Below, piece after piece: positions 5,586-45,090 of a stretch of DNA of 45,103 nt. Source of the stretch: a virus. A program made the position numbers and the translations under genes. The notes beneath the pieces are model-generated. The model searched no databases and was not told where the DNA came from. It saw nothing but the letters and a program-made list of their open reading frames with translations. Location: IMG/VR virus record IMGVR_UViG_3300031716_000018; one strand, given 5' to 3'. Position 1 is the stretch's first letter, and every line of letters starts with the position of its first letter.

Positions 5586-5939
5586 ATGTCAATAGACCAA
5601 ATCATTGGTATCCTAGTGACTGTAGTCCTAGGCATGACTGGATGGGGGCTGTTCACCTTGGTTAAGTTGGATGCTAAGATGAGTGGCTTCCATCAGTGGC
5701 TACTCTCGCATGAGAAGCTTGATGATATTAGGATGGAGAACATCACTCAAAAGTTTGAAAACCTTAATGCCGAAATTAAGGAGCCTATCAAAGAGATTAA
5801 GGATCAGATGAAGGGGATGCAGGAGCGTATGTCAAGGATAGAAGAGCGTCATTCCAGAATATCTGAGTTTATCCGCCGTCAGGATGAAAGCACCAGGCGC
5901 CAGGATGAAAGAGAGCGTAAAAAAGATGTACCTGTATGA
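5586..5939 (+). CDS. membrane-anchored coiled-coil protein (117 aa)
   Basis: N-terminal TM segment IIGILVTVVLGMTGWGLFTLV followed by a charged coiled coil. Weak RBS. Confidence 0.5.
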   Translation: MSIDQIIGILVTVVLGMTGWGLFTLVKLDAKMSGFHQWLLSHEKLDDIRMENITQKFENLNAEIKEPIKEIKDQMKGMQERMSRIEERHSRISEFIRRQDESTRRQDERERKKDVPV

Positions 5940-22205: not shown

Positions 22206-24743
22206 TCATATCATGGAGTAGAGTCGCTCTTTAATCTTATCTTCCTTGAAGAAACCTTCCTTTGTTGCTCTATCAAGCCACGCTTCGTAGGTGGTATCTT
22301 CACCCACCTTGTAATTGAGCATCGCTCCCCAACTGTATCCCCATTGGAACTCACCTGGAATATGACAATCTCGACCATTGATAGTGAATCGAACCCTGTC
22401 TGCAGCTGCCTCAGCGCGCTCCATAAACTCTTGAGTTCTATTGGGAGGTCCACTTGCAAGGTAACTGTCGTGGCCTTGCTGATGGAACTTGACCCAAGGA
22501 AGATTATCCCAGAGCTCAAACATTGCTTCATTGAGAATGTCTGGGACAGTTGCTTGAGGTATGTAGGAGACCAGGTCACGCCAGATTTCGTCGGGAAGTT
22601 GACCCGTATGAGCAAGCGCCCCACAGGCCTTATACAGTTGGCGCACTCTACCCATAGGGGTAACAAGACACCCTTTAATGCAAGCCAGTTGTTTGATACT
22701 TCTGTGCCACTCGGATATTTCAGGTACTTGAATTCCGTAATTGTCATAAGTGTAACGTGCAAAATCTAATGGAATGTTAGCGGTGATTGCCAGCTTCTTA
22801 TAAGCCATCATGTAATTGTAGGCATGAACTATCCGCTTGCTTACATCATACTCAATTGAGTCTGACTCGATATCTTCAGGTCGCTTTCTAAATATTCCAC
22901 CTCCCACAACCTTGTGAATCTTGATAGGAGAAGCAAAAACGTTAAGAAGAAAGCGGCAATTAGACAGCCAAGCAACAATGCGAGCTTCAGCCTGGCTAAG
23001 GTCTCGCTGCCAGAAAACAGAACCTGGTGGGGGACAGTACATGAGACGCATGATTTTAGGGACTGTCTGCGGGCTTGAACCGCGCCATTTAGGGCTCTGG
23101 CTGAAGGACCATCTACCAGTTTTAGCAAAAGAAACGCGAGCCATGTAGCCAAGATAATGTTCGCCATCAGGATCAATATCAAAGTCAACATTGATATAGT
23201 TGCTCTCCTTCGTCCTCAAATGTCTGATCTGCAAGATGAGATTCAGCTGAGGTACATTAGGATGGCTTGCTCTGAGCTCTCGCAGCGTATCTTCATCTGT
23301 TGTGACAGAATCAGTTCCACGCTTGTGCTTGACAGGTAACCTAAGTTCTTCATACAATAAAGTAGCAACCGCCGGCGTAGACTTGACGTTGATCGGCCTT
23401 CCAACAAGTTGATCAAGCTCTGCTTGTCGGCGTTCTCGTTCAGTTTTAAGAAAAGCTGCCAGTCGTCCATGCCATTCTCTGTCGAGCCGTAGGCGATTCC
23501 GCTGCATCTCAAGACCGATCGGGAGAAATCGTCTAACGCGATTTTCGTAAGTTGATATGAGGCCTCCTTCTGTGAGGTCTCGTCGGACAGCCTGGCTGAC
23601 TTTAGGAGTTGAAACCATGTCTTTACAGTTGTAAGTGAAGGTCTTCTCATCCGGCTCCTTCTTGTTCCATGTCTTACCTTCATCCTTGTAATAGGGGTAG
23701 AAGGTGTAAAGCATCGTAGTGAAATCCAGGCCTTTATCAAACTCTGGATAAGCCACGTTCATCGCAGTCATTGGATCGAAGTTGATGCCGCCTGGCTCTA
23801 CTCCGAAATCGAGGAGATAGTCCAAGTCATAAAGAATATTCTGATTTTCAAGTAGTGGATTGTCTCGCATTGTTTCTGAGAGAGATCGCCAAATTGCACT
23901 TTCCTCCACCACACTCCATGCCGCGCCAGAACTTTTCTGAATCGGGACGCACATAGCGTACCTTGGCTTGGCATAAGATGATAGTCCGAAGCATCGGAGA
24001 GATGAGCCGACAGTTTCCACGTCGAGTGTCCAAGGTTGTCCTGACGTCCTAATGAAATCCAGTAATTCCAGAACTTCCCTGAAGGAGGGGTCAATAACGA
24101 AGACATCTGAAGTCTCCTTTTGGATAATATGTGGTGCAGTCGACTCAACTGCGATCCTCTTTAGCTGGCGAATGAGTATGTAATACCACTCCCAGTTATC
24201 CCTCATGATATACGCAGGGTGTAGGATTGGGATAACCTTGAGGCCTGGGATAGTGTCGCTGAGAAGGATACTGCCATGCCATTTGGTAATTCCTTCATGT
24301 CCTGTGCATAGCGTCTTAAGTGCTTCATTTCCTGCTGCAACCACAACATTCGGTCTATATTTGGACAGCTCCGCCACAAGCAAGTTACGCCACCACAGAA
24401 GCTCTTCAGTAGGCTGTTTTCTGCGCTTCGGGTCAAGATAGAAAACTCCAAAGTTATCTCCTGGGGGCCTCCTTTTAGAGACATTTGTGCGGTTAGCGAG
24501 AGCAAAGTCAATTCCAGAATTGGAGCAAGCCTTTCGTAGTAGGTTGCCTGACCCTCCCACAAAACCTTGAGGTTTGGATATTCGAGGAATTGAGCATCGC
24601 TTACATTTTCCTGCGTAAGGCATTCCGTATCCACATGAGGGACATTCATGCCAACTTACCTCCTGCCCGCCAGGGGCTTCACCCACAAAAGTTATTAAGG
24701 CGCCATCCCTAATTGTTGGCGGGCACTCAACAATAGGATTCAT
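22206..24743 (-). CDS. DNA polymerase, family A, with N-terminal UDG-like domain and 3'-5' exonuclease (845 aa)
   Basis: UDG family-4 motifs FVGEAPGGQE, FVGGSG, RRPPGDN, ILHPAYIMR. Exonuclease motifs LDVETVG, NILYDLDYL, YNCKD. Pol A motifs DLSQAEARIVAW, KRIVHAYNYMMAY, QGHDS. Confidence 0.9.
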   Translation of the reverse strand: MNPIVECPPTIRDGALITFVGEAPGGQEVSWHECPSCGYGMPYAGKCKRCSIPRISKPQGFVGGSGNLLRKACSNSGIDFALANRTNVSKRRPPGDNFGVFYLDPKRRKQPTEELLWWRNLLVAELSKYRPNVVVAAGNEALKTLCTGHEGITKWHGSILLSDTIPGLKVIPILHPAYIMRDNWEWYYILIRQLKRIAVESTAPHIIQKETSDVFVIDPSFREVLELLDFIRTSGQPWTLDVETVGSSLRCFGLSSYAKPRYAMCVPIQKSSGAAWSVVEESAIWRSLSETMRDNPLLENQNILYDLDYLLDFGVEPGGINFDPMTAMNVAYPEFDKGLDFTTMLYTFYPYYKDEGKTWNKKEPDEKTFTYNCKDMVSTPKVSQAVRRDLTEGGLISTYENRVRRFLPIGLEMQRNRLRLDREWHGRLAAFLKTERERRQAELDQLVGRPINVKSTPAVATLLYEELRLPVKHKRGTDSVTTDEDTLRELRASHPNVPQLNLILQIRHLRTKESNYINVDFDIDPDGEHYLGYMARVSFAKTGRWSFSQSPKWRGSSPQTVPKIMRLMYCPPPGSVFWQRDLSQAEARIVAWLSNCRFLLNVFASPIKIHKVVGGGIFRKRPEDIESDSIEYDVSKRIVHAYNYMMAYKKLAITANIPLDFARYTYDNYGIQVPEISEWHRSIKQLACIKGCLVTPMGRVRQLYKACGALAHTGQLPDEIWRDLVSYIPQATVPDILNEAMFELWDNLPWVKFHQQGHDSYLASGPPNRTQEFMERAEAAADRVRFTINGRDCHIPGEFQWGYSWGAMLNYKVGEDTTYEAWLDRATKEGFFKEDKIKERLYSMI

Positions 24744-26155
24744 TGATCGTCATCCTCAGAGCCGCCCAAGGGATCGTACTTAGAGGCTTCTTGAGGCGCC
24801 GGTTCGCTCTCAACAGTGCCAATGAGTTTTGTAAGTCGCTCGACAATTCCGGCGTGATAGGCCTTGTCCTTTTCACACAGTAGGAAATTACGCCCCGTCT
24901 GAATCGCAGCTTCTCCCAATGATCCTGAACCGGCAAAGAAGTCTGCAACAGTTTCTCCAGGCGCTGTTGAAGTTTCAATGAGCTGCCTAAGTAAGGATAC
25001 CGGCTTCTCGACAGCGTGTACTTTTCGCGCAGTCGGAACAGGATCGTGGCTGAGGACGTTTGACTGTCCCTGCCGAAGCAAGGCACGGTTACCTTTACGA
25101 CAGAAGAAGCATGCTTCGTAGCCAGAACCCCACCGACTGTCTGGGTGATTAACCTGGCCAGGTCCCGGCTTGACCCACACCAGTGGGATAGGTTCAACTG
25201 TGAATCCAACGTCTCTGAGCATGCTGAAGACTTTGTGATATTGCTTGATGTCGAAGAAGAAGTAGGCATGAGTATTGTCCTGTAAGAGGCGGAAAGCCTC
25301 CTTAGCCATCATCCATGTGAGATCCATTATGTCATAGGTATCATCATCATAGATCTCTGGATGAGGCGATCCTTTCTTAGTTTCACCAACGTGCAGGTTG
25401 ATGCCATAAGGGGGATCAGTGATGACGCAATGCAGGCAGCCATCATTCCATCCCTTAACAATTTGTAAGCAATCACCCAACTTGACCTTGTAAATGATTG
25501 AGTCGACCTCATCAGATTGGATGGCGCTCTTTGCCTTTGCTTTTAGCTCGCTGGCTTTTTGAGTAAGGTCAGCGCGCCGCATCAACAATCTTAGTTTGTT
25601 TTGAGCTTGTGTTTTGTTCTTAGATTCAGCAAGCTCAGGAAAGACCTCGATAGCCTCAGCCAGGCGAACGTCTTCCCAGAACTCCGTCTTTGACTCACCA
25701 ACATGGTCAGCCACATCCCTAATGCCATCACCATACTTCTTCCGGCGGATTTCATAGATTCGTTTCTTTGCACTAACCTCTTCCTGATAGGTGAGATTCT
25801 CACGAAGGAGGTTTTCATCTAGCTCAATCTCCTCCTGCTCCAAGCGATCAGTGACATCATCCCTGAAGATGGCACTTATCTCTGTACGCCGTATTTTAGC
25901 GTGGGCTAGATAGCGACGATAGCCTGCAACCAACTGATATTCACATCTCTGCGGCGCGTCCGGAAACCGGACACGATCAACTGGGCAGACCACAATTGGC
26001 TCTATCAAACCATGCTGAGCAATTGAAGTTGCCAACTCAGCCAACTTTCCATCGTTAATCCTTTGTCTTTGTCGATCTGCAGGTATCAAAACTGATGTTA
26101 ATGGAATCAGTTTTACATTATGAGTTATTATTCTCTCTTCAACAGCCTCTACCAT
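24740..26155 (-). CDS. ParB-like N-terminal domain fused to an N6/N4 DNA methyltransferase (471 aa)
   Basis: ParB/Srx block GLIEPIVV...LVAGYRRYLA. Methyltransferase motif IV ITDPPYG comes before motif I VADFFAGSGSLGEAA, with HAVEKPVSLL in between. GAGGAGG RBS. Confidence 0.9.
   Translation of the reverse strand: MVEAVEERIITHNVKLIPLTSVLIPADRQRQRINDGKLAELATSIAQHGLIEPIVVCPVDRVRFPDAPQRCEYQLVAGYRRYLAHAKIRRTEISAIFRDDVTDRLEQEEIELDENLLRENLTYQEEVSAKKRIYEIRRKKYGDGIRDVADHVGESKTEFWEDVRLAEAIEVFPELAESKNKTQAQNKLRLLMRRADLTQKASELKAKAKSAIQSDEVDSIIYKVKLGDCLQIVKGWNDGCLHCVITDPPYGINLHVGETKKGSPHPEIYDDDTYDIMDLTWMMAKEAFRLLQDNTHAYFFFDIKQYHKVFSMLRDVGFTVEPIPLVWVKPGPGQVNHPDSRWGSGYEACFFCRKGNRALLRQGQSNVLSHDPVPTARKVHAVEKPVSLLRQLIETSTAPGETVADFFAGSGSLGEAAIQTGRNFLLCEKDKAYHAGIVERLTKLIGTVESEPAPQEASKYDPLGGSEDDDQ
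25958..25972. repeat. Dispersed palindrome copy 4: GTCCGG-aaa-CCGGAC
   Basis: Read directly. Lies inside the ParB-domain coding part of 24740..26155 (read as VRFPD on the minus strand). Confidence 0.9.
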
Positions 26156-38966: not shown

Positions 38967-39009
38967 GATGGCAAAGTGACATGGAATGACATTAGGGATG
39001 TAGAACAAC

Positions 39010-39059
39010 CACTAACTTACATTCAAACTCCACCAACTTCCAAGGACGACCACTAACTT
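39010..39059. repeat. Three phased 9-mers CAC(T/C)AACTT at 20-21 bp spacing (iteron-like)
   Basis: 39010-39018 cactaactt, 39031-39039 caccaactt, 39051-39059 cactaactt. The two outer copies share accactaactt. Confidence 0.8.
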
Positions 39060-39193
39060 CCCTAGATGACCGGCCCCTACCCTGGGGGTAGGTGGCACGA
39101 TTTTTGCGGGGAGGGGGGTGGGGGAGTCCCAGATTCACACCTACAAAAATCCACTGTGTGAGCTTATGGGCTGAGATGTGAGCTGAATAGCTA

Positions 39194-39222
39194 TTGACAT
39201 TAAGGCCGATCTATGATACATT
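39194..39222 (+). promoter_or_regulatory. Candidate rightward (late) promoter TTGACA-17-TACATT with TGa
   Basis: TTGACAttaaggccgatctaTGaTACATT. It would leave almost no leader before the ATG at 39233. A TATGAT 5 nt upstream makes the -10 assignment ambiguous. Confidence 0.35.
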
Positions 39223-39232
39223 GCGGGTCACA

Positions 39233-39883
39233 ATGGAAAATCTCAACGCCTCCGATCCATTCCATCCTGACAATATGCCAGTCGCGGGGCACGAGCCCAA
39301 GACACAGGTTGTCCGGATCCCGGACAGCAACGAACTTGACAATCTCATTACTGATAATAACGCCCCCGCCCCTCAATTGGCCGAGGCTGAGAATGCCACT
39401 AAATACGGCGAGGGGCGATGGGAACCAGATGTCCTAAAGCCTCGTCATCGTGAGATTCTGAGGCGCGTTTTTGAGGGCTCATCCTACCAGGACATTGCCG
39501 ATGCTATGGGCATCCATAAGCAAACGGTCATGCTAGTTGCAACCTCCAAGCTCTTTCGAGAAGAGCTCGCAAAGATGGAATCTCGTGCTGACTATACCAT
39601 CGTCTCCCGTGCTGACTCTATGGCCAACGAAGCCTTAGATAAGATCAAAACTCTCATGAGATCATCTCGCTCTGAGTTCCTCCAGAAGCAATGTGCAGAG
39701 CGTATTTTGGATACTGCTGGCTATTCTAAGGTAGAAAGGAAAATCCTTGGAATCGTTACAGGTGAAGACGTCATACGAGAACTTAACAAGCGCAAACGCG
39801 AAGCCACCTCCATTGCAGGGGATGGTGGAGGACCAGCCCTACCTGAGATTGATTTGGGTGATGGGTCGGATATCTTGCCTTGA
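39233..39883 (+). CDS. HTH DNA-binding protein, small-terminase-like by position (216 aa)
   Basis: The track ORF starts at a TTG (39194). The first ATG is 39233. REILRRVFEGSSYQDIADAMGIHKQTV is a LuxR/sigma-region-4-type HTH. First gene before terL. Confidence 0.5.
   Translation: MENLNASDPFHPDNMPVAGHEPKTQVVRIPDSNELDNLITDNNAPAPQLAEAENATKYGEGRWEPDVLKPRHREILRRVFEGSSYQDIADAMGIHKQTVMLVATSKLFREELAKMESRADYTIVSRADSMANEALDKIKTLMRSSRSEFLQKQCAERILDTAGYSKVERKILGIVTGEDVIRELNKRKREATSIAGDGGGPALPEIDLGDGSDILP
39311..39325. repeat. Dispersed palindrome copy 7: GTCCGG-atc-CCGGAC
   Basis: Read directly. Lies inside 39233..39883 (read as VRIPD). Confidence 0.9.
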
Positions 39884-40094
39884 TGCCATTGGCGCACGTC
39901 ATTTTGATCTATTAGTGGAGGATACTTATGAAGCCAACCAAGTCGAAGAAGCAGTCAAAAGAGCAAAAAGACTCAGAAAAGAAAGAACGCTCAAAGTCAA
40001 GCAAGGCAGACCGAAAAGAAGATCGTATGGGGAAGACACGGAAAGGGTCGCGGAGTTATTAGACAACTACGCGAACAGCGGGCAAAGAGGTTAA
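39861..40094 (+). CDS. possible basic protein (77 aa), doubtful
   Basis: Internal ATG of track ORF 39747..40094. Weak RBS. Competes with the 39928..40062 frame. Confidence 0.25.
   Translation: MGRISCLDAIGARHFDLLVEDTYEANQVEEAVKRAKRLRKERTLKVKQGRPKRRSYGEDTERVAELLDNYANSGQRG
39928..40062 (+). CDS. possible Lys/Ser-rich 44-aa peptide, doubtful
   Basis: My own translation: MKPTKSKKQSKEQKDSEKKERSKSSKADRKEDRMGKTRKGSRSY. GGAGGA lies 5 nt upstream of the ATG. Confidence 0.3.
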   Translation: MKPTKSKKQSKEQKDSEKKERSKSSKADRKEDRMGKTRKGSRSY

Positions 40095-40103
40095 AGATCT
40101 CAG

Positions 40104-40862
40104 ATGGGTGGCTTAGCTGATATATTAGGGAAGCAGGACTACGAGAGGCATCAGGGCGTGATCAAACCAGCCCTCCGCCCCTCAGATCATCACCCTCAGT
40201 TTAAGGGCGTCCCTGAAACAGGGCGCTATGAGGATGGGATCAATAAGGCTGAACAGATCAGCCGTAACATGGAAACCTACTTCAATAATCCCTGGGCCAT
40301 GATTGAGGACGGCCATATCTGGACCTTAGATGAAGCTGACAAACTAAATCCCGTAAAGCCCTTCCCTGATACCAAGTGGAACAAATGGATAACTGAGCAA
40401 TGGCTCTCTCGTGATCTCATCTCCCTCTTCAAATCAAGGCGTATGATGATTTCCTGGCTCTTCATCTATCTCCATCTTTGGATGGTCTTATTCCTTGAGG
40501 GTCGATCTGTCTTCTTCGTCTCTGATAAGGAGGAGAAAAGTGACGAGCTCATTGACAGAGTTGAGTTCATCTACAATCACATACCTGATGACGTTATGCT
40601 TAAACCCGTTGCTAAGCGAACGTACTGCCACTTTGAAGTGCCAGGACTCAACAATTACATACTCGGTGTCGCACAAGGAGCTCGCCAGCTTGCTCAATAT
40701 ACAGCGTCAGCTCTTTTCTTTGATGAGTTCGCACACTGGGAACGAGCGCGAGAAACGTTTATGGCAGCTAAACCAACTATTGATGGTGGTGGAAAGGTAA
40801 CCCTCGTATCATCACCAAAGGAAGGATTCTTCAAAGAACTATGCTTCGATCAAGTCCGTTGA
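40104..40862 (+). CDS. terL: terminase large subunit, N-terminal ATPase fragment (252 aa)
   Basis: KSRRMMIS (Walker-A-like), LFFDEFAHW (Walker B), GKVTLVSSP (coupling motif). The ORF stops 15 codons after the coupling motif. Confidence 0.7.
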   Translation: MGGLADILGKQDYERHQGVIKPALRPSDHHPQFKGVPETGRYEDGINKAEQISRNMETYFNNPWAMIEDGHIWTLDEADKLNPVKPFPDTKWNKWITEQWLSRDLISLFKSRRMMISWLFIYLHLWMVLFLEGRSVFFVSDKEEKSDELIDRVEFIYNHIPDDVMLKPVAKRTYCHFEVPGLNNYILGVAQGARQLAQYTASALFFDEFAHWERARETFMAAKPTIDGGGKVTLVSSPKEGFFKELCFDQVR

Positions 40863-41143
40863 TCAAAGAGCACATACTCAACAGTCTGCTGATTGGCGGG
40901 CTATTGTTGGTGATTAGTATGATGACTGGATGTACTGGCATATTGTTCACTGATGCTCTCCGTCGTGGGGATAAGTTATCCAAAGAAGAGATCGCAGCTT
41001 ACGAATCTGTTGGCATGGTCGTCGTAGGTTGTATAACTGCCAATGGCCCGCCGCCAATAGGCGCAACTACATGGCTCATCTTCCCGAAAGGACAATCATT
41101 GAGTGGGATCAATTTCACTGATGGGTGTCACCTTAGACAATAG
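40841..41143 (+). CDS. lipoprotein (100 aa) encoded in the terL insert
   Basis: MLRSSPLIKEHILNSLLIGGLLLVISMMTGC gives a charged n-region, a hydrophobic core and the lipobox-like MTG/C. AAGGAAGGA lies 14 nt upstream. Confidence 0.5.
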   Translation: MLRSSPLIKEHILNSLLIGGLLLVISMMTGCTGILFTDALRRGDKLSKEEIAAYESVGMVVVGCITANGPPPIGATTWLIFPKGQSLSGINFTDGCHLRQ

Positions 41144-41156
41144 TTTAGGAGGATTT

Positions 41157-41300
41157 ATGGCTCTTACAGTTCTATTACTGTTCGCCGTTGCTGCCTTGAT
41201 AACTTCCATTATGGAAGCCCTGGGCAAATGCCCCTCATTCGTTCCAGTCATTATCTTGTCAGTTGGACTGCTTGTCCTGGCAGCTGTTCCACTGAAATAA
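41157..41300 (+). CDS. 47-aa two-TM membrane peptide encoded in the terL insert
   Basis: Internal ATG of track ORF 41103..41300, preceded by TAGGAGGA. MALTVLLLFAVAALITSIMEALGKCPSFVPVIILSVGLLVLAAVPLK. Confidence 0.45.
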   Translation: MALTVLLLFAVAALITSIMEALGKCPSFVPVIILSVGLLVLAAVPLK

Positions 41301-41306
41301 GATTCA

Positions 41307-42263
41307 ATGAAAATCACCTCCTTAGACCTTCCCTCATCTGTTGAGGCTCTTGGGACAGTCCGCGAGGAATTGCCTGAGGCTATCAACGTTGATGAGATAA
41401 TGACGGGCCTGAAATGTTGGGAGAACCCCATCAACAGGTTTTTCGTCATCCGCCTTCACAGAAGCGCTGATCCTAAGAAGCGGTTGAAGGAATGGGAGGA
41501 AAAGACTCGCGCCGGTATGGACACTGCCAACTGGTTGCGTGAGTACGAGCTAGTGTGGGAGGCTCTGAATGGCAGGGCCGTCTATCAGGATGAATGGAGT
41601 CACGATTTCCACGTCTCAAAGACCTCCTTGGGATGGAACCCTAACCTCGCCATCGGAAGGGGCTGGGACTTCGGACTCTATCCAGCTTGTATCTTCTGCC
41701 AGCTTTTCCCACACTCTCGTCTTATTGTGATTAGGGAATGTATTGGTGAGGACATCGATACCGAGAGGTTCATGTATGAAGTCGATCGCCTCAGCGCTGA
41801 ATGGTTTCCTAACGCTAGATTCGTTGAGTTCGTTGACCCTACAGGAAAGAATAGAGTTGGGACGGATGGCAGAACATATACTCAGCTCCTTGCCAGAAAA
41901 CCCCTTCGTGCGAAGAAGATATATCTTGGAGCTAACGCGCCTGTTGCTCGTCGAACTGCGGTCATCGACTTCCTTAAGGAGAATGTCAAAGGCCAACCGG
42001 CTCTCCTTGTTGATCCGTCGTGTGAGATGTTGGTCAAAGGCTTCAACGGAGGATACATGTACGCCTACCTCCAAGGAACCTTAAAGACCAAACCAGAGAA
42101 GAATATCTTCTCTCATATCCATGATGCCTTGCAATATCTCTGCTCAAAGGTTCGCACTGTTGATATGAAGGTCAACCTTGCCACGGTCAAGCCCGTCGAA
42201 CCAAGATTTGGCGGCCGTACTCCATCACCTATTCCTCAAGTGGAAGGAACATATGGCAGGTAA
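41307..42263 (+). CDS. terL: terminase large subunit, C-terminal fragment (ATPase lid plus RNase-H-like nuclease, 318 aa)
   Basis: FFVIRLH..ADP..EWEEKTRAG...WLREYELVW, then GWDFGLYPA, FVDPTGKN and HIHDALQYL, which are typical TerL nuclease landmarks. No SD before the ATG. Confidence 0.8.
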   Translation: MKITSLDLPSSVEALGTVREELPEAINVDEIMTGLKCWENPINRFFVIRLHRSADPKKRLKEWEEKTRAGMDTANWLREYELVWEALNGRAVYQDEWSHDFHVSKTSLGWNPNLAIGRGWDFGLYPACIFCQLFPHSRLIVIRECIGEDIDTERFMYEVDRLSAEWFPNARFVEFVDPTGKNRVGTDGRTYTQLLARKPLRAKKIYLGANAPVARRTAVIDFLKENVKGQPALLVDPSCEMLVKGFNGGYMYAYLQGTLKTKPEKNIFSHIHDALQYLCSKVRTVDMKVNLATVKPVEPRFGGRTPSPIPQVEGTYGR

Positions 42264-44484
42264 ACCAGCCAACTATCACGAAGCAAATCCTCGAGGAGGC
42301 TACGTTAATGGCAAGGTCAAGGATGACTCTAAGCCATGGGATTCTGCGGCTTTGGGATTCTCCGATAGGGAAAGTGGCGTCCCGATCTACAACTCCGAAG
42401 ATATTGCTGATGCTCTCAGTGAGTATAATCTCAAGCGCTTTTTTAGTGCTATGTTGGAGGAAGCTAAGAAACTCGCCGCACCTAGAGTGGAGGTACGTCG
42501 AAGGTGTTGGGCGCTTTATAATAACGAGTACGACTGGTCAGACAAAGCCTGGTGGCAGCACCGAGCTCCTATACCAAAAGTTAGAGCAGCCGTTGACAAG
42601 GCAGTAGCCCTCTTCCGAAAAACCCTTCTGAGGATGAACCCATTCTACGGCATTCAAGCTGAAAGTAGGATGGGCAGAACTAAGGGAAGATTCACCATGT
42701 TGCTGACGGACTATCACTTTGATCAGTCCGCCGTCATCGAGTCCCTAGTTGATGCATTCAAAGTCGGTCTGATAACCTCTGAATCCATCCTCAAAATCTG
42801 GTGGATGCGCACAAGGGATTTCAGACCAGAACTCAACATCACTCAGAAGGAAGAATATACATATGAGTTTGGTGTGCCAACAGGGAAGTCTGTCAAGGAG
42901 ATTCGTGAAGCATCCTTGGCAAAATATGAGAAGGGAAAGTTAGGCGTTGCCTGCGTCAATCCTGATAACTATTGGATTGTTCCTGGAACTCGTAATAGAA
43001 TGTCAATTGAGCGCGATCAAGCTACTTTGAATGAAATTGAGTCTTTGGCAGATGAGGGCATTTATGACAAGGAGGCAGTCACGCGCCTCCGTGACAAGCT
43101 CTCCTCTGCCACTACGATTCAAGAAGATACTACGCCGCAGATCACTAAAGAAGGCGCGCCGGCCACCACGACGTATCTCCGTCCAGTAGATTTGTGGCAC
43201 TTCTGGGGGGACATCTACGATGTACAAGGAAAACTGGTTAAGTGTGATGCGTCGTTTACTCTCGCAAATCAGGATATCCTCATCCGTAAGGCCAGGGATA
43301 ACCCTTTTTTCCATAAGGATCCACCATATGTTCTTGGAACTCCTTATAAGGTACCCTTCTCGACCTATCATCGCGGAATGGTTGAGGACGTTATGGAGTT
43401 GGCGACCGCCATCACCGAGATGGCTAATCTCATTGCAGATGGCGCGCTTTACGATGCCCTCAAAGCGTTCTCAGTGGATATTGACCAGCTCGATGATCCC
43501 TCTGAGGCAAGGCAGGGTTTATATCCTGGCAAAGTGTTTATACGTAAGTCAGGCTCTGCAGCTTCTCCAAATGAACAACTTGTTCAGACAGTCGATGTTG
43601 GCAAAGTTCCTCAAGAAGCGATGAGCATGATAAGTTTGTTTGAGAAGTACTACGCTGAGGGCTCTTACATTAATGAGTGGGTCGCCGGCCAGGGCGGGAA
43701 GGGAGATCGAACACTTGGCGAAGTCAACATTAAAACTCAATCTGCACTCGAAGGACTTGATGAGTCAGCCAGAAATCTTGAAGTCACTCTCATCGAGCCA
43801 ACCCTCGACATGGCGACAAGGGTTATCTATCAGTTTCACGAGGACTATACGATCCCTCGTCTTATGGATAACTATCCTAATATCGCCGTTATGCTTCAAG
43901 GTATGCAGCCTGCCGAGCGTTATTCAGTCATGGTTGGGGACTTCTCATTCAAGATGAGGGGCTTAAGCCTGATGATTGAACGCCAGCAACGAATCGGGGA
44001 GCTCAAGGAGATTCTCCAACTGCTGAGTTACTTGCCAGGATTTGTTGAGCGTCTAAATCCAGACGCTACGTTGGAGGAAGTTCTCATGCCTTTAGGTTGG
44101 GATCCTTCCAAACTCCTAATAAATCCAGCACAGGCGGCAGTAACTACACCGCAGCCCGGCGCGGTGCCCCAGCCTCCCATGATCCCGCCAGGCGCCCCTC
44201 CTGGTATGGAGCAGAGAAATGCTATGGAGGGAGCTCGCATGGGAGGAGCCAGAAATAATCCAGTTGCGCGAGGAGGCAATCCACAGTATTCACGGCCCGT
44301 CAACAATGGCCCTATGAGGCCTCCTATGAGAGGTGGCGCACCAATGCCTCCACCACGTCCGGTTACCGGACAGCCGCCAATGCAAGGTGGCCCCTTACAA
44401 CAACAGCTCTTAGGAGCTCTTAGATTTATGATGGCCAGGAATCAAGGGCGTAACTTGTTACAGCCTCCACCGCAACAGCAATGA
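42253..44484 (+). CDS. portal protein (743 aa) with Pro/Gly/Met/Gln-rich C-terminal tail
   Basis: I chose the ATG at 42253 (MAGKPANY), which overlaps the terL stop. The track ORF starts at 42178. Called from size and position directly after terL. Confidence 0.6.
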   Translation: MAGKPANYHEANPRGGYVNGKVKDDSKPWDSAALGFSDRESGVPIYNSEDIADALSEYNLKRFFSAMLEEAKKLAAPRVEVRRRCWALYNNEYDWSDKAWWQHRAPIPKVRAAVDKAVALFRKTLLRMNPFYGIQAESRMGRTKGRFTMLLTDYHFDQSAVIESLVDAFKVGLITSESILKIWWMRTRDFRPELNITQKEEYTYEFGVPTGKSVKEIREASLAKYEKGKLGVACVNPDNYWIVPGTRNRMSIERDQATLNEIESLADEGIYDKEAVTRLRDKLSSATTIQEDTTPQITKEGAPATTTYLRPVDLWHFWGDIYDVQGKLVKCDASFTLANQDILIRKARDNPFFHKDPPYVLGTPYKVPFSTYHRGMVEDVMELATAITEMANLIADGALYDALKAFSVDIDQLDDPSEARQGLYPGKVFIRKSGSAASPNEQLVQTVDVGKVPQEAMSMISLFEKYYAEGSYINEWVAGQGGKGDRTLGEVNIKTQSALEGLDESARNLEVTLIEPTLDMATRVIYQFHEDYTIPRLMDNYPNIAVMLQGMQPAERYSVMVGDFSFKMRGLSLMIERQQRIGELKEILQLLSYLPGFVERLNPDATLEEVLMPLGWDPSKLLINPAQAAVTTPQPGAVPQPPMIPPGAPPGMEQRNAMEGARMGGARNNPVARGGNPQYSRPVNNGPMRPPMRGGAPMPPPRPVTGQPPMQGGPLQQQLLGALRFMMARNQGRNLLQPPPQQQ
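44357..44371. repeat. Dispersed palindrome copy 8: GTCCGG-tta-CCGGAC
   Basis: Read directly. Lies inside the portal C-terminal tail (read as RPVTGQ). Confidence 0.9.
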
Positions 44485-44819
44485 TCTTTTTGCTTGTAGG
44501 GTGGATTTTATTCAGTCAATTAGATGGAGTCAGTCCAAGCGCATACTGTAAGGAAGAGATTTCCACTGGAGCTTATGGACCTTGTGCAATTGTCGTCGGA
44601 CAAGAAACAGACCCAGAATTTGGAACTGTCACTGAAATCTGGGAGTGGGGAACTGGTACTGACAATCCCATTAGGTGGGCTGGACCTCCTTTCTGTATCG
44701 AGGGATGGCTTCCAAGTTCAGATGAAGCAATCAAGATGGACGTTGGAGCTTGTCGGTGGCGTTCAGTCCCAGCCTCACCACCCACTCCACCAGACGGCTT
44801 AGGGATATTTTATGACTGA
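44481..44819 (+). CDS. protein with N-terminal hydrophobic anchor, next to the endolysin (112 aa)
   Basis: ATGA overlap with the portal stop. MIFLLVGWILFSQL, then a Cys/Trp/Pro-containing domain. A lysis-related role is only positional. Confidence 0.5.
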   Translation: MIFLLVGWILFSQLDGVSPSAYCKEEISTGAYGPCAIVVGQETDPEFGTVTEIWEWGTGTDNPIRWAGPPFCIEGWLPSSDEAIKMDVGACRWRSVPASPPTPPDGLGIFYD

Positions 44820-45090
44820 ATACACCTTTCATCAATTCATGTTCGATCTATGTCGTAACTTCAATGGCTCCATCTCCTCAACACATAGAACTGTTGGCCA
44901 CAACAAACTGGTTGGTGGAGCTTCTAACTCTCAACATCTTGGATTTAAGGCTGCTGACCTCGTGCTGGACGACCCTGGCCTCAACAAGCCCAAAGTTCTC
45001 CGTCTATGTGCCGAGCGAGGACTGTGGACTCTTGATGAAGGAGATCATCTTCATATTGACGACCGAAATAACGCGGAGGATAAAAGATAA
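44812..45090 (+). CDS. endolysin, zinc peptidase M15 (VanY/Peptidase_M15_3-like, 92 aa)
   Basis: SQHLGFKAAD is the H-x6-D motif and GDHLHIDDR the H-x-H motif; both are the metal ligands of M15 cell-wall peptidases. Confidence 0.7.
   Translation: MTEYTFHQFMFDLCRNFNGSISSTHRTVGHNKLVGGASNSQHLGFKAADLVLDDPGLNKPKVLRLCAERGLWTLDEGDHLHIDDRNNAEDKR

Follow-up and report, generated by a model that had tools for sequence, protein, structure and literature searches.

A large terminase gene carried as two open reading frames in a podophage-like virus and its relatives: a probable stable gene fission

Two open reading frames of the large terminase

IMG/VR virus record IMGVR_UViG_3300031716_000018 is a DNA sequence of 45,103 nucleotides (nt); the whole of this stretch is termed the window below. 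Two open reading frames (ORFs), at positions 40104–40862 and 41307–42263, encode predicted proteins of 252 and 318 amino acids (aa) which are two parts of one large terminase (TerL). They are termed TerL-N and TerL-C. The ORFs are separated by a gap of 444 nt (148 codons) and lie in a common reading frame; the initial annotation, made from the sequence alone, gave these coordinates, spacing and frame, and all are confirmed. It also correctly described the gap as gene-bearing and as having several in-frame stops. However there are 10 stops, not three, in the TerL frame between the two ORFs, and the gap contains two genes and not one.

TerL-N displays a weak match to Pfam Terminase_6N and matches the T4-type TerL ATPase domains of cultured phages. 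By itself it gives 442 matches at E ≤ 1e-10. A profile of the TerL family aligns with residues 103–312 of T4 gp17 (E-value 1e-14). KSRRM..S corresponds to the gp17 Walker A sequence SRQLGKT, LFFDEF to the Walker B sequence MIYIDE (FDEF on IDEC) and LVSSP to the coupling motif ITTTP, so that the profile alignment places all three motifs that had been read from this ORF by eye. The ORF stops 14 residues past the coupling motif. TerL-C covers the C-terminal 55% of one-piece TerLs and has 64 stand-alone homologues at 51–85% identity. The nuclease motifs named in the initial annotation are likewise upheld, as the Asp residues of GWDFG, DPTG and HxxD are invariant across the alignments.

When TerL-N and TerL-C are fused as a single query, one-piece TerLs of 508–588 aa are found with 81–89% query coverage, 27–40% identity and E-values of 1e-43 to 1e-93, a similarity well above chance level. 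The AlphaFold2 model of the fusion has a mean predicted local distance difference test (pLDDT) of 80 and a predicted TM-score (pTM) of 0.58, and it matches the TerL structures of D6E, T4, T7, Sf6 and HK97 (5oeb, 3cpe, 4idh and 6z6d at E-values of 1e-10 to 5e-17). The profile and structure searches proposed at the outset thus match both fragments to TerL. The pair displays an additional-strand catalytic E (ASCE) ATPase with Walker A, Walker B plus catalytic Glu and a coupling motif, and a C-terminal RNase-H-like nuclease with an acidic triad. The one departure from a TerL is that the ATPase and nuclease are not on one polypeptide: they are on two ORFs with the 10 in-frame stops between them.

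The Walker A sequence itself, at positions 40431–40454 (KSRRMMIS), is deviant. GK[ST] is replaced by KSRRM..S(W), which is conserved in this TerL family and which we take to resemble the deviant P-loop of lambda gpA.

Conservation of the split

The relatives' loci comprise 80 IMG/VR loci and other contigs. The first homologue search listed only C pieces; the N pieces came from tblastn and from an exhaustive search of representatives. All 64 of the closest TerL-C homologues are stand-alone proteins of 313–356 aa. In the clade of the window every member is split, and TerL-N ends at the identical codon with the sequence ...FD[QLE][VI][RK]. The stop codon that follows is TGA, TAA or TAG depending on the relative, which rules out stop-codon reassignment. 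The TerL-C N-terminus MKI(T/S)SLD is conserved in this clade; the N-terminal peptide in the window is MKITSLDLPSSVEALGTVR. In the clade and in many deeper lineages the break point is always 0–5 residues past the FDQVR motif, and the split is retained in lineages down to about 30% identity. One-piece homologues also exist, and in a rough neighbour-joining tree they group in two clades. The comparison with relatives that the initial annotation had called for therefore gives uninterrupted forms of terL together with a break that is conserved at one position across the clade.

Within this TerL family, whose split members come from a large group of uncultured phages, the split form outnumbers the one-piece form. 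Among the best 150 cluster representatives from the exhaustive TerL-N search, 88 are stand-alone N pieces, with a median of 5 residues from the end of the match to the end of the protein, and 43 are at least 400 aa long, at least three of these being intein-bearing as well.

Both halves are under strong purifying selection. The ratio of non-synonymous to synonymous substitution rates (dN/dS) between L005 and L006 is 0.05 for TerL-N and 0.055 for TerL-C; between the window and L001 the synonymous sites are saturated and the proportion of non-synonymous differences (pN) is 0.11. The two genes are always adjacent, in constant order and on a common strand. The reading frame is shared by both halves at just two of the nine loci of the closest clade (the window and L006), and the shared frame in the window is therefore a coincidence. 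The weight that had been placed on it, and on a U...G junction compatible with splicing, was misplaced.

The exact TerL-C protein is found on 23 contigs read, from about a dozen samples, in JGI and Logan assemblies and in two from ENA. Every locus examined among those samples has the same layout: 252 aa, lipoprotein, 47 aa, 318 aa.

Several loci display unusual forms of the junction. Two splits have no cargo: at L027:4962–4965 the stop and start codons overlap as ATGA, and at L037:1686–1692 there is a 1-nt spacer preceded by GGAG. These may represent a minimal or ancestral state of the fission. At L013:1608–1824 TerL-N extends 71 residues into the cargo region in comparison with the near-identical L014, and either a frameshift variant or a sequencing error accounts for this difference within the slot. 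A scan of genome contigs gave contigs of metagenome-assembled genomes only, with no firm host; L088 is split and the remaining contigs share just the nuclease. A DNA search of the phage collection in distant mode with window positions 39000–44500 gave no matches.

Position of the break

Alignment with gp17 supports the earlier statement that the break is within the ATPase domain, and alignment and modelling together refine it to a variable, disordered surface loop near the boundary of subdomains I and II. On gp17 the break corresponds to approximately residues 302–312, just ahead of the subdomain I/II boundary at 313/314 (subdomain limits from PMC3074133). TerL-N has the N-terminal piece of subdomain II and the RecA-like subdomain I. 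TerL-C has at least the C-terminal half of the “transmission” subdomain II, the hinge and the nuclease. In one-piece homologues the stretch at the break is variable in both length and sequence, and is located after the conserved helix GFFKxxVFDQ and before the strand ...W.NP.N.F.V..LHY. Residues 250–277 of the fused AlphaFold2 model (28 residues) have a pLDDT below 50, with flanks of 80–95.

The break is about 50 residues upstream of the ATPase/nuclease hinge and TerL-C therefore carries part of the ATPase domain. When TerL-C is modelled alone, its first ~100 residues have a pLDDT of 28–64, compared with 71–91 in the fusion; the nuclease domain is confident in both models. This is moderate evidence, because the alignments of the two models differ, that the TerL-C head (the first ~100 residues) may require TerL-N to fold.

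The gap as a slot for accessory genes

Homology among relatives ends exactly at the TerL-N stop and restarts exactly at the TerL-C start. Between these points the gap ranges from 0 to 4 kb in size and its content is unrelated from one relative to another: 73 gap ORFs represent 57 families, and 47 of these have a single member. The gap acts as a slot in which variable accessory (“moron”) genes are freely swapped between close relatives, as its content is unrelated even in these and its boundaries are the ends of the flanking genes.

The 444-nt gap of the window has a lipoprotein gene and a gene for a 47-aa membrane protein. The 85% identical relative L001 has other ORFs in a gap of 1.3 kb, and the gap of L007 is 1.8 kb. 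L005 and L006 have a secreted protein, a Fis-type helix-turn-helix (HTH) protein and a lipoprotein at this location, L010 and L011 two small soluble proteins, L056 a 176-aa lipoprotein, and L012–L022 one ORF of 71–73 aa. The gaps of L060, L067 and L071 are about 4 kb long, and that of L071 includes a glycoside hydrolase family 19 (GH19) hydrolase. A Pfam scan of 52 gap ORFs from relatives found only HTH_8 (two ORFs), Metallophos, Glyco_hydro_19 and Zn_ribbon_8. Insertion by a homing endonuclease was considered and rejected: no endonuclease domain is present in these 52 ORFs, and the two gap ORFs of the window have no significant Pfam match.

The first cargo gene in relatives usually has a strong Shine-Dalgarno (SD) sequence directly behind the TerL-N stop, and TerL-C usually has none. 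The window conforms to this with respect to TerL-C, as had been noted at first reading: no SD sequence is present within 20 nt of the ATG at 41307. A search of the + strand of the gap showed no promoter-like site and one terminator-like hairpin (40883–40902, inside the lipoprotein ORF), with counts near shuffle expectation.

In L002, a 51% identical relative, the gap (L002:3401–4001) has genes for a two-helix protein of 53 aa and for a protein of 85 aa with a membrane helix at its N-terminus; a lipoprotein ORF overlaps the latter gene in another frame. This layout resembles that of a holin and an overlapped Rz/Rz1-type spanin pair.

Cargo genes and the packaging region of the window

The window genome of about 45 kb is podophage-like and has a guanine plus cytosine content of 47.7%. 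Its gene content includes an SU10-type portal, a major head protein, a family A DNA polymerase, a primase-helicase and a ParB-methylase. A search across the window gave no tRNA and no Rfam match. On the + strand the packaging genes are in the order small-terminase-like HTH gene, TerL-N, two small ORFs, TerL-C and portal (Table 1), and the start of the portal gene overlaps the end of TerL-C by 11 nt.

Table 1. Features of the packaging region in the window
Feature	Positions	Strand	Basis
Small-terminase-like HTH gene, start of packaging operon	39194..39883	+	phrog_2538 terminase small subunit, E 2.4e-8; Sigma70_r4/GerE-type HTH; syntenic in relatives
TerL-N, 252 aa, ends ...FDQVR-TGA	40104..40862	+	Pfam Terminase_6N; profile alignment to T4 gp17 residues 103–312
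Cargo gene 1, small lipoprotein, 100 aa from ATG 40841	40841..41143	+	Signal peptide and lipobox ...MTGC
Gap between TerL genes (cargo slot), 444 nt	40863..41306		10 stops in TerL frame; unrelated content in relatives
AGGAGG Shine-Dalgarno of cargo gene 2	41147..41152	+	Read from sequence; 4 nt ahead of ATG 41157
Cargo gene 2, 47 aa, two predicted membrane helices	41157..41300	+	Hydrophobic segments; gene call on several contigs
TerL-C, 318 aa: variable linker, ATPase-completing strands/helices, hinge, RNase-H-like nuclease	41307..42263	+	Stand-alone homologues; fold matches
Portal, 743 aa from ATG 42253	42253..44484	+	Pfam SU10_portal; gene calls in identical contigs

The lipoprotein ORF is the sole lipobox candidate in the window. 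It has a signal peptide and a lipobox with an invariant Cys, and lipidation is predicted. The lipoprotein homologues P0116 and P0117 are present at this site only. The ATG at 40841 sits in conserved TerL-N codons and relatives do not have an ATG there. The lipoprotein could instead start from a TTG at 40859, which overlaps the TerL-N stop as TTGA (40859–40862), and this overlap suggests translational coupling.

Window positions 40863–40950 and the same region of L094–L104 form a micro-diversity hotspot that extends about 90 nt past the TerL-N stop and encodes the lipoprotein signal peptide. It is the one polymorphic spot in contigs that elsewhere are about 99–100% identical. There are five signal-peptide variants with indels of −9, −21 and +9 nt and with substitutions, all of them in frame. 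All five keep the lipobox Cys (LVMTGC, ISMMTGC or LGLSGC) and share an identical mature part.

The 47-aa protein gene has a strong SD sequence (AGGAGG), and its TAA stop is 6 nt upstream of the TerL-C start. Its gene differs from that of L097 by three synonymous and no non-synonymous changes, and the protein shows a sub-threshold match to Tmemb_170 only. The leading guesses for the function of the cargo are superinfection exclusion or a lysis-related role, because both products are predicted envelope proteins that appear to be expressed with late genes. A spanin pair was set aside, because no i-spanin-like partner lies alongside and because L001, at 85% identity, lacks this cargo.

Fission of terL and alternative explanations

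The arrangement is very probably a stable fission of terL into two separately translated polypeptides which assemble non-covalently, with the gap as a variable accessory-gene slot. A genuine two-piece terminase was among the options of the initial annotation, and it is supported by the clade-wide split and by the purifying selection on both halves. TerL-N and TerL-C would come together non-covalently as a normal packaging motor, with both chains contributing to subdomain II and thereby forming an interlocking interface. The three genes downstream of TerL-N would be read from the same late packaging transcript. Translation of TerL-C probably proceeds by coupling or re-initiation, or by SD-independent initiation, because it has no SD sequence and starts 6 nt past the preceding stop.

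Some points weigh against this interpretation. We infer the non-covalent assembly of the two proteins, as we do the mode of TerL-C translation and the role of the cargo, and PADLOC, Pfam and PHROGs give no homology support for the function of either cargo protein of the window. The structural test was a single-chain fusion and not a two-chain prediction, with different alignments for the two models. The RNA of the gap folds somewhat better than shuffled controls (z −2.8), and an RNA element of some kind thus stays formally conceivable. A cultured phage with the split was not found; the tblastn matches in isolates (Rollin, Hodr, Pmp11) are distant and one-piece, and the viability of the split form therefore rests on the evolutionary argument.

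Two independent proteins, i.e. a stand-alone packaging ATPase and a stand-alone nuclease which form no TerL-like unit, are improbable. ATPase-only packaging enzymes of the phi29 gp16 type do exist and the pTM of the fused model is low, both of which count for this explanation. However the cut is upstream of the hinge, so that TerL-C holds a part of the ATPase domain, this part is poorly modelled without TerL-N, and the two genes are never found apart or rearranged. Less probable still, and very unlikely, is removal of the gap at the RNA level by an ORF-bearing group I or group II intron or another ribozyme, which would restore a single terL frame. The covariance-model scan that the initial annotation had suggested shows no match to Rfam group I or II introns at E ≤ 10 in positions 40500–41700, and at gathering score neither the window nor any of 15 related loci has an Rfam match with a model set that lacks the subtype-specific group I models. 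Only 20 of the 444 nt are outside the two small ORFs; about 95% of the gap is coding, too much to accommodate a ribozyme core. In addition all indels in the lipoprotein ORF are in frame and leave the lipobox intact, the gaps of relatives have unrelated content, mostly in other frames, the cargo-free relatives display a simple ATGA overlap, and none of the 52 gap ORFs is a homing endonuclease. The common frame of the two ORFs in the window and the folding of the gap RNA do favour removal, and other phages are well known to have terL genes split by introns (PMC4246154; PMC12880540). The option is not supported here.

Ligation of the halves after translation by a split intein (a “fractured gene”) can practically be set aside. 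TerL-N ends 0–5 residues beyond the last residue that is homologous to one-piece TerLs, and TerL-C has only about 12 extra residues, without an HN[CST] motif. Split inteins consist of an N-intein of 88–105 aa and a C-intein of 33–54 aa (PMC2677866); with a near-zero surplus of residues at the junction the two halves cannot be present. There is no Hint/intein Pfam match in TerL-N or TerL-C. One fractured terminase that has a split intein has been described (PMC2677866) and relatives of this TerL carry a LAGLIDADG intein, however theirs is at GWDFGL in the nuclease domain, away from the break. The initial annotation had excluded an intein and simple read-through, and both exclusions hold. Ribosome hopping, as well as read-through, is ruled out by the 10 stops, the 444-nt distance and the gaps of up to 4 kb. 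The remaining option of the initial annotation, an assembly error, is excluded by the independent assemblies with identical layout. More generally, the idea that the split arose as an artefact of assembly or sequencing, or that terL is a decaying pseudogene of a defective phage, is already refuted: nothing besides the split itself speaks for it, the layout is the same at every locus examined in the JGI, ENA and Logan assemblies, the split is conserved down to about 30% identity, and the dN/dS of about 0.05 in both halves is that of genes under purifying selection.

Stable fission with an accessory-gene slot thus remains the preferred interpretation. It is possible, and rather doubtful, that the loop behind the coupling-motif helix is a cargo slot selected lineage-wide. 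The fission would then give a protected, late-expressed exchange site for envelope proteins, regulators and possibly exclusion or counter-defence functions, and a two-chain TerL might itself be adaptive, e.g. through altered recognition by the Avs proteins of TerL-sensing host immunity or through control of the ratio of the halves.

Comparison with known systems

Phage morons and hypervariable accessory-gene slots sit between conserved late genes. The gap resembles these in that its boundaries are at the stop and start of its neighbours, its content is unrelated in close relatives and small envelope proteins are frequent. It differs in that the slot is within a normally single essential gene. 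The herpesvirus terminase gene UL15 consists of two exons which flank other genes, and the host spliceosome yields one mRNA. Here too a TerL homologue is interrupted in its ATPase part by a gene-bearing insert; however UL15 is spliced, and its intervening genes are on the opposite strand.

T4-like phages have genes in pieces that are due to free-standing homing endonucleases, e.g. Aeh1 nrdA, which is split by mobE, and the T4 topoisomerase genes 39 and 60. The likeness consists of an essential enzyme gene present as two adjacent co-oriented genes, a need for non-covalent assembly, and foreign DNA in the gap. Unlike these cases, there is no endonuclease in this gap or in the 52 gap ORFs of relatives, and the split is old and clade-wide instead of sporadic, with gap content that turns over and can be empty. 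The Aeh1 nrdA case is mentioned in PMC2677866. Group I introns and homing endonucleases are found in the terL genes of Lelliottia phage phD2B, K1E and Jug phages (PMC4246154; PMC12880540). There also terL is present as two or more ORFs with genes between them. Those are spliced into one mRNA, whereas the locus described here has no intron signature and a gap that is almost fully coding. Fractured genes with split inteins include one gp17-like terminase (Dassa et al. 2009, PMC2677866) and have two adjacent gene halves and an intervening gene in common with the present case. Here, however, there are no intein halves at the junction, and the products of TerL-N and TerL-C therefore cannot be ligated.

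The terL split thus differs from all of these known splits: a selfish element is lacking, the protein is cut within its ATPase domain, the arrangement is stable throughout a clade, and its cargo is hypervariable. No description of an intron-free and endonuclease-free terL split was found in the searchable literature. In every source that gives a name both halves are termed “hypothetical protein”, because terL is split. TerL is the most conserved phage protein, a standard phylogenetic marker and a model motor, and is assumed to be single-chain; marker-based surveys will miss or mis-size phages with a split terL. A stable natural split of the ATPase domain indicates that the motor tolerates a two-chain build and marks the exact tolerated site. 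The gap is in addition a ready-made place to seek new phage accessory genes.

Other features of the window and of related TerLs

The relatives P0135, P0176 and P0216 (about 850 aa) are one-piece TerLs with a LAGLIDADG domain. In P0135, which is the one that was aligned, an insert of about 320 aa is located directly behind GWDFGL, the catalytic Asp motif of the nuclease. From this position the insert looks like an intein, at a site other than that of the split.

Directly 3′ of the portal gene, at window positions 44481–45090, there are ORFs for a 112-aa protein with an N-terminal hydrophobic segment and for a 92-aa Peptidase_M15_3/endolysin-like protein (phrog_894). The two may constitute a lysis or virion-hydrolase pair at an unusual location. 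In the structural module, positions 5586–5939 encode a 117-aa protein in which a charged region, probably a coiled coil, follows an N-terminal membrane helix. Its shape is i-spanin-like, without an adjoining lipoprotein gene.

The family A DNA polymerase (22206–24743, − strand) has a fused N-terminal domain of the uracil-DNA-glycosylase superfamily. Beside it, at positions 24740–26155 of the same strand, is a fusion of ParB_N with an N6/N4 DNA methylase.

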